This document shows, piece after piece, positions 1-39,867 of a stretch of 64,000 nt of DNA. Numbering within the stretch: the stretch's first letter is position 1; every line of letters begins with the position of its first letter. Where the stretch lies: IMG/VR virus record IMGVR_UViG_3300005340_000003, positions 10,599 through 74,598 of that record; one strand, written 5' to 3'. Source of the stretch: a virus. The position numbers were made by a program, and so were the translations under genes. The notes beneath the pieces were generated by a model. The model ran no database searches. It saw nothing but the letters and a program-made list of their open reading frames with translations, and was not told where the DNA came from.

Positions 1-867
1 CGCCCCGCCGATTTCCATTCGTAATCGTTTCTTACGGGCAAAAATTGTCTGGTCCTGGAACCCGGGCAGGCCGATGACATGGACGTTTCGGTCCACCATG
101 TAATTGCTGACGTGATAGTGTCCCTGCACGAGAATCGCCGGCTTCTCTCCGCCCTGGAAAGACTCCACTTGCTTCTGACCGGTATAGCTCCGAGCATACG
201 CGCTTCCTCCACCCGGATGTTGAACTTTGATGATCGCGCTTTTCTTAGCGCCCTTGATTTGAACCTCAACGTCGGATTCAACGTGGCCGATATATTTCAG
301 GTCGGTTCGCTTCCCCATTTCAGCGACGTGCTGAAGATACGCGCCGAAGTTGAATCCTTCCTTCTGCCACCATCCCTCATGATCGTCCCCTGTGATAAAG
401 TGCGTTGTAATGCAGTTTCTCGCGGGGTAATTGTCCACCACATATTGAGCCTGTCCGTCAATGCTGGTATCTTCCACCGATCCACCGTTGATATGCGGGA
501 CGTAACCATCGACGATATTCCCCGCGTGCAGCACCGTGGAAATTCCTTCGCGTTTAAACAGGTCGTATTGCGCGTGCAAGCTGTCGAGCCGGCATTCCTT
601 GCAAGCGAGGTGCGTGTCCGAGACCAGACCGAAACGAATCCATTCCCCGCCGTCAATCGACCGAAGCGGAATATATCCGAAATCCGGAGCATCGAGTTTT
701 ACGTCATGCTTGAGCTTCGGAGTATTGTCGGGAGAGGATAGCTTATGCTCCACCGATTTCCGGCTGCGTCCCAGGCGATTTCCGATTTCCCGGTAACTTT
801 TTCCCTCGCCCTTTAATTTTTCGGCTTGCGCCAGTTCGTTTGCGCTCCACGGTATTGATTTTGTCAT
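1..867 (-). CDS. Calcineurin-like metallophosphoesterase with N-terminal HTH (runs off the left edge; absent from ORF track)
   Basis: Manual translation from ATG 867: MTKSIPWS...GKSYREIGNRLGRS (HTH)...LVSDTH...HAGNIVDG...ITGDDHE...VQHPGGG...VQGHYH. These match the DxH, GNxxD, GxHE, H and GHxH metallophosphoesterase motifs. The frame is open to position 1. Confidence 0.85.
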   Translation of the reverse strand, partial: MTKSIPWSANELAQAEKLKGEGKSYREIGNRLGRSRKSVEHKLSSPDNTPKLKHDVKLDAPDFGYIPLRSIDGGEWIRFGLVSDTHLACKECRLDSLHAQYDLFKREGISTVLHAGNIVDGYVPHINGGSVEDTSIDGQAQYVVDNYPARNCITTHFITGDDHEGWWQKEGFNFGAYLQHVAEMGKRTDLKYIGHVESDVEVQIKGAKKSAIIKVQHPGGGSAYARSYTGQKQVESFQGGEKPAILVQGHYHVSNYMVDRNVHVIGLPGFQDQTIFARKKRLRMEIGGA

Positions 868-36083: not shown

Positions 36084-36189
36084 AAAGATTCATAACCAAT
36101 CCGAGAACGGACACAGATGCCTTGATTGGAGGCTTCATTATTTCCGTGGCTGTCGCTACCGTGATAATCCTCATTGTGTGCGCTCTTAC

Positions 36190-36999
36190 ATGAAAGTTTA
36201 CAGCTACATTCGGGTCTCGGGTCGCGGACAAGTCGGCGGGGAAGGCCCCGACCGCCAGCGTGAGAGCATCAACGCCTTCTGTGCGGCCCGAGGACTTTTC
36301 TCCAACGGCGAGTTTTTCGAGGCCGGCGTCTCCGGCACGGTCGATGGAATGGACCGCCCTGAATTCTCCGACATGATCGAGCGGATCGAATGTCTGCGTT
36401 TAAACGGCGCTGAATGCGACGGGTTCGTTATCGAGCGGCTCGACCGGTTGGCGCGTGATTTAATGGTTCAGGAGGTTCTACTCAGTGAATGCCGGAAGCG
36501 TGACATTAAGGTTTTCGCTGCCGACCAGGGGGAACTTCTCGACCTCGCTTCGGATGCCGGCGATCCGACACGCAAGCTCATCAGGCAGGTTATGGGAGCC
36601 CTCGCGGAGTGGGAGAAATCTCAGACGGTTTTGAAGTTGCGTAAAGCGCGTCAGGCGGTTAAGGTTCGAACTGGACGTTGTGAAGGTGCCAAGCCGTATG
36701 GCGTCACTCCTGAAGAGCGGGGGATTTTGACGGCCTTGAAACTTTTCGTCCGTCCGGATAGCACTTTGAAGGACATCGCGTCACTACTTAACCGGGAAGG
36801 TTTTCATACCCGGCACGGCGGCACCTGGGACGAGAAGTCCGCATTCAGGGTGATGAAGATTGCCGGCGTGTGGCAGCGAAAGCCGACCGAGAATAATTTG
36901 AAGAATTTGGGTAAACACGCAAAAAATAAGCGGGAAGTCGGGGAGCATAGCCCCGCATTGCCTCTGGCATGTGGTGTAACAGTAGCACAACCGCACTAA
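36190..36999 (+). CDS. Serine recombinase (resolvase family with short recombinase domain)
   Basis: YSYIRVS...Q...RQ, EAGVSG, DRPEF, ERLDRLARD, GALAEWEK, PYG, IASLLNREGFHTRHGGTW. Confidence 0.92.
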   Translation: MKVYSYIRVSGRGQVGGEGPDRQRESINAFCAARGLFSNGEFFEAGVSGTVDGMDRPEFSDMIERIECLRLNGAECDGFVIERLDRLARDLMVQEVLLSECRKRDIKVFAADQGELLDLASDAGDPTRKLIRQVMGALAEWEKSQTVLKLRKARQAVKVRTGRCEGAKPYGVTPEERGILTALKLFVRPDSTLKDIASLLNREGFHTRHGGTWDEKSAFRVMKIAGVWQRKPTENNLKNLGKHAKNKREVGEHSPALPLACGVTVAQPH

Positions 37000-37223
37000 T
37001 CGAAAGGAAACAAATGGATGGAGCATACAAAGCATTCGTAAAGAGTTACGGGACAGACGTGGTGGAAGATTTCGCGAGGAAACATCGCGAGGACTGCCTC
37101 CTCCGTCTCGCTCGAATCACCAACGGCGCGGTGAAGGAATACCAGAACGGAACTACCGTCACCAAGCTTCGTAATTTGAGGAATAGCCGGTAAGAGACTT
37201 TCCGACTTTTCACTCAGAACGAC

Positions 37224-37262
37224 ACGACCACTGGAGGGCAAAAATCCAGTGGCCGTTTTTTT
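37224..37262 (+). terminator. Intrinsic terminator
   Basis: ACGACCACTGGA-loop-TCCAGTGGCCGT followed by a T-run. Confidence 0.75.
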
Positions 37263-37294
37263 GCGCTCGGAGCACTTCTTATTGCGGGCGGTAT

Positions 37295-37373
37295 TGCGGG
37301 CGGCAGGTCGTAATCTGAGCGTGCCTCATAAGCAACGCATTGAAGCGAGTTTAACTCTCGCGCTTCGCATCCA
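37295..37373 (+). tRNA. Atypical tRNA-Met/Ile2-like (CAT)
   Basis: Acceptor TGCGGGC/GCTTCGCA (bulged), anticodon arm GCGTGC-CTCATAA-GCAACGC, T arm GCGAG-TTTAACT-CTCGC, encoded CCA; D arm poorly formed. Confidence 0.6.
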
Positions 37374-37374
37374 T

Positions 37375-37450
37375 CGGAATGTAATGTCAGTAGCAGACGG
37401 CCCGGCTCGGAACCGGGAGGCCGCTGGTGCAACTCCAGCCATTCCGACCA
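37375..37450 (+). tRNA. tRNA-Pro(CGG)
   Basis: 76 nt; acceptor CGGAATG/CATTCCG plus ACCA; anticodon arm CCCGG-CTCGGAA-CCGGG; T arm GCTGG-TGCAACT-CCAGC with a non-canonical T loop. Confidence 0.88.
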
Positions 37451-37457
37451 ATTTTAT

Positions 37458-37622
37458 CGGGGGATAGTGTAAGTATGCCTGGATAGACATAAACGGGTTG
37501 GACGAAACTCCTGCTTCGGCGGGCATCAACCTCTGGCCCGGGAACGACGTGAAATCCCAGGAAAAGAAAGCACACCGGATGTGATTCCGGAAGTAGCGCA
37601 TCATTGCGTCTTCGCCCGACCA
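37458..37622 (+). ncRNA. tRNA-like RNA (His/GTG-like anticodon arm) with ~95-nt structured D-loop insertion
   Basis: CGGGGGA/TCGCCCG plus ACCA; T8A9; D stem GTGT/GCAC; CCGGA-TGTGAT-TCCGG; 5-nt variable region; GCGCA/TGCGT. Confidence 0.6.
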
Positions 37623-37629
37623 AATGTTA

Positions 37630-37748
37630 GCGGAGTGCGGCACCAACCAGGATAGGCCCTGGCCGTTGCAACGGGTTCCGGCCCGGTGGTCAAACGCCAT
37701 CGGGAAAATAGGGATGTGGCTCGGTTCCACGACCTCACTTCGCGACCA
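37630..37748 (+). ncRNA. CCA-terminated multi-hairpin RNA
   Basis: Terminal helix GCGGAGTG/CACTTCGC plus GACCA enclosing four hairpins. Confidence 0.5.
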
Positions 37749-37917
37749 ATTTTGAAACGAATCGTTTACACAAGAATTGATACTCGACCGACCGCACCCC
37801 CCGGTCAGGGTCAGGCGATCCGCGAATGGGACGACGCCTGGAGAGCGAAAGGTTTTCGGACAAAGATTCTGATTTCTCCGGACTCCGCGAAGCTCCTCGG
37901 GATTAAACCTAAGAACC

Positions 37918-39867
37918 ATGCTGACCGACCCCGCTGAAAAATTTCTCGCGCAGCAAGTCGCTCAGAAAGTTCACTCGGATAAAAAATTCGAGGCGGCTCA
38001 ACAGATTGACGATTACCTGAAGCTCAACCTCCACCTGGAGGACGACCCGAAGCAGTTCCTTCCGGTCCTGATGCACTACGTTCACTATCTCCTGAACGCA
38101 AACGCACCGGAAGCCGCCGCGCAGGTTCTCTGGACACCAAACCAATTCACGCCGGAGCCACAATTTACAAAAGACCTCTGGCAACTTTTCGACCGGTCCG
38201 CGCAGGGGCTGATTATGGGCGCGGCATCCTGCTCGAAGTCCTACGGAATGGGTGTAAGACTTTTTCTCGAATGGATTCGCGATCCGGAGTGGACGACCAT
38301 TCGAGTGCTCGGTCCGAGCGAGGCTCACCTGGAGCAGAATCTTTTTTCTCATCTTGTCGGATTGCACAAGTCAGCATCGCTGCCGATGCCCGGGGAAATC
38401 GGGGAACTTTTCATCGGCACCGACCGGAGAAATCAGTTGTCGAGCATCATGGGCGTAATTATTCCCGTTGGCCAAAAGAAGAAGGCCGGCAGGATTCAGG
38501 GTGTGAAGCGGAAGGGACGGATCACCCGTCATGAAGTCTTCGGAACTCAAAGCAGGCTTTTTATTTTTGTGGATGAAATTGAAAACGTCCCGGGCGGTCT
38601 CTGGTCCGACATCGACAACATTCTGTCGAACATCCAAGAGGAAGGCGAGACATCCGGATTCAAAATTTTCGGCGCGTTCAACCCAACGAATCAAACAGAC
38701 GAAGTGGGGAAACGAGTCGAGCCTCCTTTCGGTTGGGAAGGATTCGATGTCGAAAGCCATTACCAATGGAAATCGAAACGTGGGTGGGATGTTCTGCGTC
38801 TTGACGGGGAACGATCCGAGAATGTAGTTCAGAAAAAAGTAATCTACCCAGGACTGCAAACTTATTCCGGATTGGAGATTATCGCGAGGAATGCCGGTGG
38901 GAAATCCGCCGCAGGATATTTTTCTATGGGACGCGGTGCCTATCCGCCACAAGGCATCGAGCTTACCGTGATACCTCCGGGAATGTTAATGAAGTGGCGG
39001 GGAAAGTTCATTTGGTATGACGAACCTAAACCTGTTGGATCAGAAGATTTGGCTCTGGAGGGAGGAAACGCAGCAATATACACTCTCGGAAAATGGGGGA
39101 GAGCAACTGGTATTCTTTTTCCTCCAACCATTGAATACCCATCCGGTCGCAAGTTCATGTTTAAAGACCGCAATGGACACTCAGTCACTCGATACGGACT
39201 TCAGGCCGACCAGCAGTTCATCATTCCTAAAGGAGATACACGGGCAATGACTGACCGGACGATTGAAGTGAATCGTCGCGCGGGAGTGCGGGGGGAATTT
39301 TTCGCGTGTGATCGAACGGGCGCGGGTGCTGGAACAGCAGACCTTCTCCGGCATGAATGGAGTCCATCGCTTCATGATGTGAATTATTCTGAGGCGTGCA
39401 GCAAAGATAAAATCATGATGGAGGATTCGAAACCCTGCAACGAACAATTCGAACGAATGAATTCGGAACTCTGGTTTGCCCTCAAGTCCTGGGGCGAGTT
39501 TCAATATTTCCTCATCAACCCCGAACTGGATTTGACGAAGCTCACCGGACAACTCACTCAACGAAAATTTCGAATCGTTGGCGGGAAGACGCGAGTCGAG
39601 CCGAAGAAGGATTATGTATCGAGAGGCTTCGAATCTCCGGACGAAGCGGACAGCCTAACTCTTCTCGTTCACGCGGCACGTAAAGGTTCCGGTGTGACTC
39701 TCAGCATGTCCCTCGATAATGTCGGCGAACTGAATCCGAATTACGACGATTCGGATGGATGGCTCGACGAGATAACACTTTTGGGTGGGGCTCGGATCGA
39801 TGAGAGCAACCGCACGCAATTTCTCGATGACGGAATGAAGCCGGTTCACGAGGACGCAATTTTATGA
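37918..39867 (+). CDS. terL: Terminase large subunit
   Basis: Deviant Walker A GAASCSKS, Walker B LFIFVDE, AFNP, nuclease motifs EDLALEGG, DRTGAG, SPDEADS. Confidence 0.85.
   Translation: MLTDPAEKFLAQQVAQKVHSDKKFEAAQQIDDYLKLNLHLEDDPKQFLPVLMHYVHYLLNANAPEAAAQVLWTPNQFTPEPQFTKDLWQLFDRSAQGLIMGAASCSKSYGMGVRLFLEWIRDPEWTTIRVLGPSEAHLEQNLFSHLVGLHKSASLPMPGEIGELFIGTDRRNQLSSIMGVIIPVGQKKKAGRIQGVKRKGRITRHEVFGTQSRLFIFVDEIENVPGGLWSDIDNILSNIQEEGETSGFKIFGAFNPTNQTDEVGKRVEPPFGWEGFDVESHYQWKSKRGWDVLRLDGERSENVVQKKVIYPGLQTYSGLEIIARNAGGKSAAGYFSMGRGAYPPQGIELTVIPPGMLMKWRGKFIWYDEPKPVGSEDLALEGGNAAIYTLGKWGRATGILFPPTIEYPSGRKFMFKDRNGHSVTRYGLQADQQFIIPKGDTRAMTDRTIEVNRRAGVRGEFFACDRTGAGAGTADLLRHEWSPSLHDVNYSEACSKDKIMMEDSKPCNEQFERMNSELWFALKSWGEFQYFLINPELDLTKLTGQLTQRKFRIVGGKTRVEPKKDYVSRGFESPDEADSLTLLVHAARKGSGVTLSMSLDNVGELNPNYDDSDGWLDEITLLGGARIDESNRTQFLDDGMKPVHEDAIL

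Follow-up and report, generated by a model that had tools for sequence, protein, structure and literature searches.

A tRNA-derived, probably non-decoding RNA with a nested D-loop expansion in the small-RNA array of a soil phage

The DNA analysed here is a 64,000-nt stretch (the window) of a virus record (IMGVR_UViG_3300005340_000003) that is complete at 74.6 kb and bounded by direct terminal repeats, a phage sequence from rhizosphere and soil metagenomes. An intergenic small-RNA island (37228–37917), with a serine recombinase gene upstream and a terminase-like gene downstream, contains a tandem array of tRNA-like units, one of which is the element at 37458–37622. With a probability of about 0.55, this element is a non-decoding mimic derived from a tRNA, in which a nested, lineage-specific expansion of the D-loop is displayed and not spliced out. 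The structural and evolutionary description is the firmer part of this reading and is held with good confidence; the proposed function, binding of a protein by a tRNA mimic, is tentative. The analysis ties an odd element to a family with clear rules: the acceptor end is conserved, the stems covary, the loops are hypervariable and the D-loop tolerates expansion. The family is thus a tractable system in which the role of non-decoding tRNA mimics in infection can be studied.

The outer parts of the element are those of a tRNA. The acceptor-like stem forms six of seven pairs around one G·G mismatch (a version with seven pairs is possible with one bulged G) and ends in A73 and an encoded CCA. It is followed by U8 and A9, a 4-bp D stem, a 5-bp anticodon-like stem with a 6-nt loop closed by an A–U pair, a 5-nt variable region and a reduced T arm. 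An earlier sequence-only reading had listed all these parts, and all are present; the minimum free energy (MFE) fold reproduces this outer architecture. Beyond the acceptor end, the element departs from a canonical tRNA: its anticodon loop, UGUGAU, is not the 7-nt loop with U33 and purine 37, its T loop is UCAU (4 nt) in place of a 7-nt loop of the GUUCRANYC type, and its D-loop has 99 nt in place of ∼7–11 nt. At 37458–37622, Rfam gives no RF00005 match at E ≤ 10 and ARAGORN finds 0 genes.

The long D-loop is itself organized. Two joiners lead to a 5-bp basal helix, inside which the motifs AUAGAC and GUGAAAUC flank an inner domain of 60 nt (Table 1). The basal helix and the UUCG hairpin were already recognized at the outset; both are present as complementarity, the hairpin as a predicted structure. 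A third helix suggested then, GGGUUGG/UCAACCU, is real as complementarity, but the MFE fold prefers CGGGUUGGA/UCUGGCCCG (37494–37502/37532–37540), and the two exclude each other. The internal loop formed by AUAGAC and GUGAAAUC was compared by eye with the consensus of a K-turn and with that of loop E/sarcin-ricin; it fits neither, and both readings were rejected.

Relatives were gathered by searching with the terminase-like protein, which yielded about 100 loci (numbered with L) from IMG/VR and JGI metagenomes; the metagenome scan gave mostly contigs already in IMG/VR, and the protein has 713 relatives in Logan/ENA. Its identity to the protein of the window phage is 85% in L004, 82% in L002 and 80% in L003. 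Variants with and without the insert, a search for which had been suggested as a check, were both found. The D-loop has 4 nt in L002, 7 nt in L003, 4–8 nt in the three units of L080 (L080a–c), 6 nt in L129, 52 nt in L004 and 99 nt in the window, and GUGU/RCAC stem halves bracket the short loops of L002, L003, L080a–c and L129. The insert-free relatives and the half-length L004 locate the extra sequence precisely between the two halves of the D stem and agree with the initial view of a large extra domain in the D-loop of a tRNA-derived scaffold. An alternative D stem, GUGU/ACAU (37467–37470/37487–37490), is not conserved in L004 and was discarded.

Common to the inserts of the window and L004 are the initial AAG, the 5-bp helix and an A-rich 3′ joiner, and the motifs AUAGAC and GUGAAAUC are the same in both. 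In the basal helix, CCUGG/CCAGG in the window versus UCCGG/CCGGA in L004, two pairs are changed on both sides and none is broken. In the T-like stem, which reads GCCGU-UCACU-ACGGC in L004, RNAalifold counts two more pairs changed on both sides. The joiners have diverged while the two motifs remain identical. The inner domain has 60 nt in the window versus 13 nt in L004, so that about 47 nt are nested further in the window phage. In L100 and L173, the T-loop GUGAAGUC matches GUGAAAUC at seven of eight positions, and GUGAAACU of L129 is similar to it; given this likeness and a nominal T hairpin loop of only 4–5 nt in the window and L004, the inserted arm may supply a T-loop-like element. Against the gathered loci, BLAST of the insert and inner domain gave only chance matches of 10–14 nt, and BLAST of the whole element gave no match, L004 included. 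Pattern scans of IMG/VR returned 28 matches for GTGAAATCCC(N)GGAAAA and 11 for TAGTGTAAG-N4–12-GGATAGAC; only the contig of L004 is a real case, the others being without context.

In the relatives, the same slot is a variable small-RNA island with tRNA-Met, tRNA-Pro or tRNA-Ala, tmRNA and many tRNA-shaped units, the latter unreported by ARAGORN and by the Rfam tRNA model even at E ≤ 1. The related phages have at least 13 such scaffolds in this slot, and thirteen were parsed. They share C1–G72, G2–4:C69–71, A73 and an encoded CCA; acceptor positions 1–4 (CGGG/CCCG) are near-invariant and positions 5–7 covary. Their 4-bp D stem has G10–C25 and U11–A24 and comes in two forms that differ by a G–C to C–G swap at the third pair, namely GUCU/GGAC in group A and GUGU/GCAC in group B, to which the window belongs; the latter stem is also found in L004, L002, L080a, L080b and L129. 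One nucleotide separates the D stem from the 5-bp anticodon-like stem, whose non-standard loop has 4–9 nt and differs from member to member (3–14 nt by eye if L100, read with a triloop, and L090, with a 14-nt loop, are added from outside the parse). The T arms are heterogeneous and without a canonical loop. The window element has the location and build of the family: it lies in the island that precedes the terminase-like gene, arrayed in tandem with tRNAs, and has the acceptor end with CCA, the D stem and the 5-bp stem.

Covariation supports these stems. The anticodon-like stem covaries widely across the family, with 65/65 stem cells paired under the parse used. Over 16 stem pairs, 96% of the cells are paired, 10 pairs are changed on both sides and 24 extra pair types occur; none of 1000 partner shuffles reaches the observed covariation values. 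A covariation check of the D and terminal stems, proposed together with the first description of the element, is in agreement, both stems covarying in the 13 members, with the D stem forced in the parse. A covariance model built from six members (R1) finds at least 10 scaffolds at E < 1e-6, with E down to 3e-13. It also scores the true tRNA-Pro genes of these phages at ∼30 bits (30.8 bits for that of the window), which fits an origin of the scaffold from a tRNA of the proline type. Phage and bacterial tRNA-Pro share with the element C1–G72, A73, the encoded CCA, U8, a 4-bp D stem and a 5-bp anticodon stem; the element differs in having no proline anticodon, a 6-nt anticodon loop, a 4-nt T loop and a 99-nt D-loop. 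As judged from sequence comparison, the scaffold is a real, conserved and non-decoding RNA family, previously unnamed and with dozens of members.

The family extends to other soil phages, about 73 kb in size, and to large tRNA arrays of bigger phages. Scaffolds of group A, with a D arm GUCU-AAAAUCUA-GGAC and a T loop containing GAAGUC, also lie within such arrays; 26 and 13 tRNAs are found near them in the stretches examined, and ARAGORN does not call the scaffolds. Some loop sequences occur more than once, each time on a different and unrelated stem: UGUGAU is common to the window and L030, AAUCGA to L004 and L090 (the latter by eye), GAAUU to L003 and L129, and AGCUA to L080a and L080c. By eye, 9/14 loops contain a 4-nt palindrome (UCGA, AAUU, AGCU, GAUC or UGCA). 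Recurring or palindromic loops could point to loop–loop dimerization or to a shared ligand. The early description of the UGUGAU loop as histidine-like is weak in this light, the loop recurring in L030 and those of other members being unrelated.

A number of results weigh against the interpretation as a displayed, non-decoding mimic. Taken alone, the cloverleaf pattern is at chance level. A descriptor with an acceptor of at least 6/7 pairs plus NCCA, a 4-bp D stem, a 5-bp anticodon stem with a 6–8-nt loop and a free D-loop of 20–120 nt matches 26 times in the real window versus a mean of 23.3 in 12 first-order Markov resamples, and the fold of the whole element has z = −0.72, 49 of 200 shuffles folding as well. 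The pattern rises above chance only through its context, a tandem array behind a real tRNA-Pro, and through its homologues. The inner 60-nt domain has a fold z of −1.57, which is not significant, and no similar sequence in the gathered loci; the insert is carried by two phages only, that of the window and that of L004. The acceptor of L004 has 4/7 pairs and that of the window one mismatch, as expected under relaxing constraint. The parse of the family forced the D and anticodon stems, not the acceptor, to pair, which inflates the paired fraction. With filters off, R1 gives partial matches of 8.2 bits for the window and 8.0 bits for L004 (E ∼0.06–0.07); because the long insert breaks the alignment, these scores are not significant, and homology to the insert-free scaffolds therefore rests on array position, shared stems and short motifs. 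The L003 scaffold in the positionally equivalent slot is too diverged to be aligned by BLAST, though the tRNA-Pro and element 3 that flank it are about 80% identical, so that scaffold units may be swapped cassettes and not orthologues. No RNA run is among the sequencing runs listed for the sequence. Among the phage genes, searches found no Pth, CCA-adding enzyme, class II aminoacyl-tRNA synthetase core, RtcB or Ro/TROVE protein.

Part of this evidence is what a decaying pseudogene would leave, and such a duplicate is the main rival, though an unlikely one. A tRNA-Pro-type gene would have been duplicated and would have received neutral insertions in its D-loop, giving an RNA without a role. This would account for the 6-nt anticodon loop, the 4-nt T loop, the acceptor mismatch and the poorly paired acceptor of L004, for an insert of unequal length in only two phages, for a fold no stabler than shuffles, and for the fact that L002, among other close relatives, has no such element. 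The compensatory changes and the conserved motifs speak against decay: between the window and L004, two helices show at least four compensatory double changes and no broken pair, and AUAGAC and GUGAAAUC are identical while the joiners diverge. The strong covariation of the family stems, their persistence across many diverged phages, and the retention of the encoded CCA, A73 and acceptor pairs 1–4 likewise count against this rival. If the element were only a decaying duplicate, it would still teach caution, since a cloverleaf with a free insert arises at a chance rate of ∼23 per 64 kb.

A cis-acting role in processing or stability is less probable again. The unit would be punctuation for RNase P and RNase Z, parting the upstream transcript from the late (terminase) mRNA, or would stabilize a transcript, with the insert as tolerated baggage. 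In its favour, a terminator-like hairpin directly precedes the array and the terminase-like gene directly follows it, with one orientation throughout and short A/U-rich spacers, and the number and kind of its units vary freely among relatives. A single tRNA would suffice as punctuation, and neither the conserved non-tRNA motifs of the insert nor the loops recurring on different stems (UGUGAU, AAUCGA) would be explained. Moreover, a conserved promoter-like motif between the array and the terminase gene suggests that the latter is transcribed separately.

That no RNA gene exists at all, the cloverleaf being fortuitous and the DNA acting as a recombinase site, promoter or packaging signal, is improbable. 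The chance-level descriptor and fold would suit this view, as would the serine recombinase gene 460 bp upstream and the terminase-like gene next to the array. It is opposed by compensatory substitutions that keep RNA-type pairs, including G·U, on one strand, by a 3′ end and spacing like those of the neighbouring true tRNA, and by family members in large tRNA arrays of unrelated big phages, far from recombinases.

Least probable is an intron-like insert. Group I introns of bacterial tRNAs lie in the anticodon loop, while archaeal bulge–helix–bulge introns also occur at non-canonical sites including the D arm; as in such genes, extra sequence interrupts a tRNA-shaped gene that has insert-free relatives. 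The original suggestion was of an intron-like piece removed and religated by the phage ligase; here, ∼99 nt would be excised and the halves rejoined, for example by the PF09414 protein that the phage encodes, into a ∼66-nt tRNA-like RNA. This reading is not supported. Rfam gives no match to a group I or II intron or self-cleaving ribozyme at E ≤ 10, and the junctions lie in a 7 × 8-nt internal loop between D stem and insert helix and not in a bulge–helix–bulge. The phage has no RtcB, and its ligase gene sits among DNA polymerase, helicase and PD-(D/E)XK nuclease genes, in the DNA replication and repair module, with no link to the element RNA. The conserved basal helix and motifs look like a retained structural arm, and the insert-free relatives are themselves non-decoding, so that removal of the insert would not restore a working tRNA. 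The remark that a group I intron does not fit by position and size was sound: the insert has 99 nt and lies in the D-loop, whereas a group I core usually exceeds 200 nt and is found in the anticodon loop.

Known RNA families were also considered; neither Rfam, at its gathering threshold or at E ≤ 10, nor ARAGORN accounts for any part of 37458–37622. Small self-cleaving ribozymes (hammerhead, twister, pistol, hatchet and HDV-like) were rejected, with no Rfam match at E ≤ 10 over 36800–38400. At the element, the same threshold gave no match to a group II intron, riboswitch, tmRNA or Y RNA. Neither ARAGORN nor Rfam finds a tmRNA there, and pair 3:70 is G–C, not G3:U70; a YrlA or bacterial Y RNA was dismissed for want of an Rfam match and of a TROVE domain in the phage. 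An ATP-dependent DNA ligase is absent from the phage. A blastn search of the island in GenBank phages gave no match, and a scan of GTDB representative genomes returned one unrelated contig of a metagenome-assembled genome, with no prophage or host clue. In the literature, no description was found of this scaffold family or of D-loop domains in phage tRNA-like RNAs.

Under the preferred reading as a displayed mimic, the element would have kept the acceptor end of the tRNA-Pro type, the 4-bp D stem and the 5-bp anticodon-like stem while a 7-nt anticodon loop and a canonical T loop were lost. The D-loop would have gained an arm in the lineage of the window phage and L004, a 5-bp helix flanked by AUAGAC and GUGAAAUC, and within this arm the window phage would have received a further hairpin-rich ∼47 nt. 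The array would be transcribed as a single precursor, from which host RNase P and 3′ processing could release, by virtue of the tRNA chassis, a CCA-ended RNA made stable by its tRNA-like core. The insert would remain in the mature RNA as an exposed, displayed surface. In the initial proposal of a tRNA-displayed aptamer, display on a tRNA chassis fits this picture; an aptamer would be a further assumption.

Of the possible roles, binding to a tRNA-recognizing protein appears the most plausible because the acceptor end is the most conserved part of the family and the loops are the most variable. The RNA may then serve to decoy or inhibit a host enzyme, either of tRNA-targeting defence or of processing; alternatively, its acceptor end may be a substrate used outside translation. 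If either role is true, the family would be a new class of RNA-based phage counter-defence or a metabolic tool, and the D-loop arm would illustrate how an old fold takes on new RNA domains. It is tempting to speculate further, at still lower confidence, that soil phages possess a natural ‘tRNA scaffold’ system, in which a tRNA-Pro chassis ensures processing and stability and exchangeable modules provide binding surfaces. The modules would be the hypervariable ‘anticodon’ hairpin and, here, also the nested D-loop arm with its T-loop-like motif. Displayed modules could be decoys or inhibitors of tRNA-targeting defence nucleases, with UGUGAU, AAUCGA, GAAUU and AGCUA resembling specificity determinants.

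That stable RNAs with no known function are encoded in phage tRNA clusters is a long-standing observation, rnaC and rnaD of T4 being examples. T4 rnaC (species 1, 139 nt) and rnaD (species 2, 119 nt) are likewise small stable RNAs at the distal end of a phage tRNA cluster, after a tRNA; the likeness is an analogy of position and size, and sequence similarity is not expected. A canonical GGUUCGAAUCC T arm and weakly paired ends mark T4 rnaC as tRNA-derived, with no encoded CCA in the annotated span. The element, in contrast, has a clear acceptor stem with A73-CCA, a D stem and an anticodon-like arm, and its extra sequence is confined to the D-loop. Ponchon and Dardel reportedly engineered a ‘tRNA scaffold’, in which a tRNA chassis confers processing and stability and a foreign folded RNA is displayed from one arm. 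That construct is synthetic and its cargo replaces the anticodon arm, whereas the cargo of the element is natural and in the D-loop.

Two natural groups of RNAs can also be compared. Bacterial Y RNAs with a tRNA-like domain (YrlA; Chen et al. 2014, PMC4201824) do not decode, mimic part of a tRNA and act by protein binding; they also occur in some phages. The paired ends of YrlA form the Ro-binding stem and the tRNA-like module is internal; the ends of the element form an acceptor stem with CCA. The allo-tRNAs (8/4 and 9/3) of soil bacteria and phages have a 7-nt anticodon loop, are charged and are used in translation (Mukai et al. 2017, PMC5389517). They are likewise unusual cloverleafs from soil metagenomes and phage tRNA clusters and, unlike the element, have no D-loop domain.

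The array has the order tRNA-Met-like unit, tRNA-Pro, element 37458–37622 and element 3, a CCA-ended RNA, in tandem; L003 has tRNA-Pro, scaffold and element 3 in the same order. A CGACCAA 3′ end is common to tRNA-Pro (37444–37451), the element and element 3 (37743–37749), and the spacing and 3′ end of the element match those of the neighbouring true tRNA-Pro, which is the only Rfam family found in the whole window (37375–37447). In contigs from four soil/rhizosphere DNA runs, the island is unchanged, and neither an indel nor a joint nor an insert-free form occurs in them. A small conserved open reading frame lies between the recombinase gene and the terminator-like hairpin, and the protein encoded downstream of the island (649 aa) has Walker motifs and resembles a large terminase. 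A minus-strand open reading frame at 37326–37919 was rejected as a gene, its frame not being conserved in relatives.

Table 1. Features of the element, its array and related loci (window coordinates unless a locus is named)
Feature	Position	Strand	Remarks
PF09414 RNA_ligase-family protein, 199 aa	14728–15327	−	Pfam 38 bits; only ligase-like gene found in the phage
Resolvase-type serine recombinase	36178–36999		upstream of island, 460 bp from element
Hairpin + U7, terminator-like end of upstream recombinase operon	37228–37262	+	read from sequence; also in L003
tRNA-Met-like unit, degenerate	∼37295–37373		first in array; CUCAUAA loop, ends UCCA
tRNA-Pro(CGG), genuine	37375–37450	+	Rfam RF00005 50.5 bits (match 37375–37447); 8 nt upstream of element
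Acceptor-like stem, 5′ strand CGGGGGA	37458–37464	+	pairs with UCGCCCG 37612–37618, 6/7
U8 A9 linker	37465–37466	+	same in L004
D stem, 5′ strand GUGU	37467–37470	+	pairs with GCAC 37570–37573
5′ joiner of expanded D-loop, AAGUAUG	37471–37477	+	L004 counterpart AAGACGUG, diverged beyond initial AAG
Insert basal helix, 5′ strand CCUGG	37478–37482	+	pairs with CCAGG 37557–37561
Conserved motif AUAGAC	37483–37488	+	identical in L004 (2736–2741)
Inner 60-nt domain, unique to window phage	37489–37548	+	UUCG hairpin and two mutually exclusive long-range pairings
UUCG hairpin CCUGC-UUCG-GCGGG	37510–37523	+	
Conserved motif GUGAAAUC, T-loop-like	37549–37556	+	identical in L004 (2755–2762)
Insert basal helix, 3′ strand CCAGG	37557–37561	+	
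3′ joiner AAAAGAAA	37562–37569	+	L004 counterpart AAAACAA
D stem, 3′ strand GCAC	37570–37573	+	
Anticodon-arm-like hairpin CCGGA-UGUGAU-UCCGG	37575–37590	+	6-nt loop; hairpin z = −2.78
Reduced T-arm-like hairpin GCGCA-UCAU-UGCGU	37596–37609	+	4-nt loop; z = −2.58
Acceptor 3′ strand UCGCCCG, discriminator A37619, encoded CCA 37620–37622	37612–37622	+	
Element 3, CCA-ended structured RNA, 119 nt	37630–37748	+	8-bp terminal stem closing four hairpins
GTTTACAC-N-GAAT-N-GATAC motif	37764–37783; L003 ∼2852–2872; L004 ∼2838–2858; L080 ∼631–655		
Group A scaffolds	L175 13931–14006 (279-kb contig); L178 4301–4377, 2422–2501; L172 3732–3806; L173 3889–3963		

Element 3 has homologues in L003 (2711–2828, 79.5% identity) and L004 (2606–2703); by eye, the terminal stem and three of the hairpins show compensatory changes. 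No Rfam family matches element 3, whose long variable arm and 4-nt ‘anticodon’ loop recall a class II tRNA. The GTTTACAC-N-GAAT-N-GATAC motif is conserved in the interval that separates the array from the terminase-like gene, and in many relatives the first RNA of the array is preceded, at 12–14 nt, by a CACT-containing motif. The two motifs are promoter candidates for the phage; a sigma-70 promoter scan picked up neither.

In the tRNA-Pro, which ARAGORN misses, the T loop GGUGCAACUCC is unusual, position 55 being G; the orthologue in L003 has the standard GGUUCGAAUCC T loop. At 37400–37454, contigs in four soil/rhizosphere DNA runs match the 3′ half of tRNA-Pro only, at 4–10 times higher depth, with 4–7 differences before they diverge. 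The probable source of these contigs is other phages or hosts whose tRNA is similar in its 3′ half. In L019, and likewise in L020, the island contains a phage tmRNA (1038–1423 in L019, Rfam 78.7 bits), followed by ∼400 nt of hairpin-rich sequence (1424–1825) with no RNA family match. The tRNA-Met-like unit of the window is called by neither Rfam nor ARAGORN, and its 5′ acceptor sequence UAUUGCGGGCGG is duplicated in tandem at 37281–37304. In more distant relatives, the unit in this first slot is a canonical tRNA-Met(CAU), and in the close clade of L002, L003 and L004 it is degenerate.

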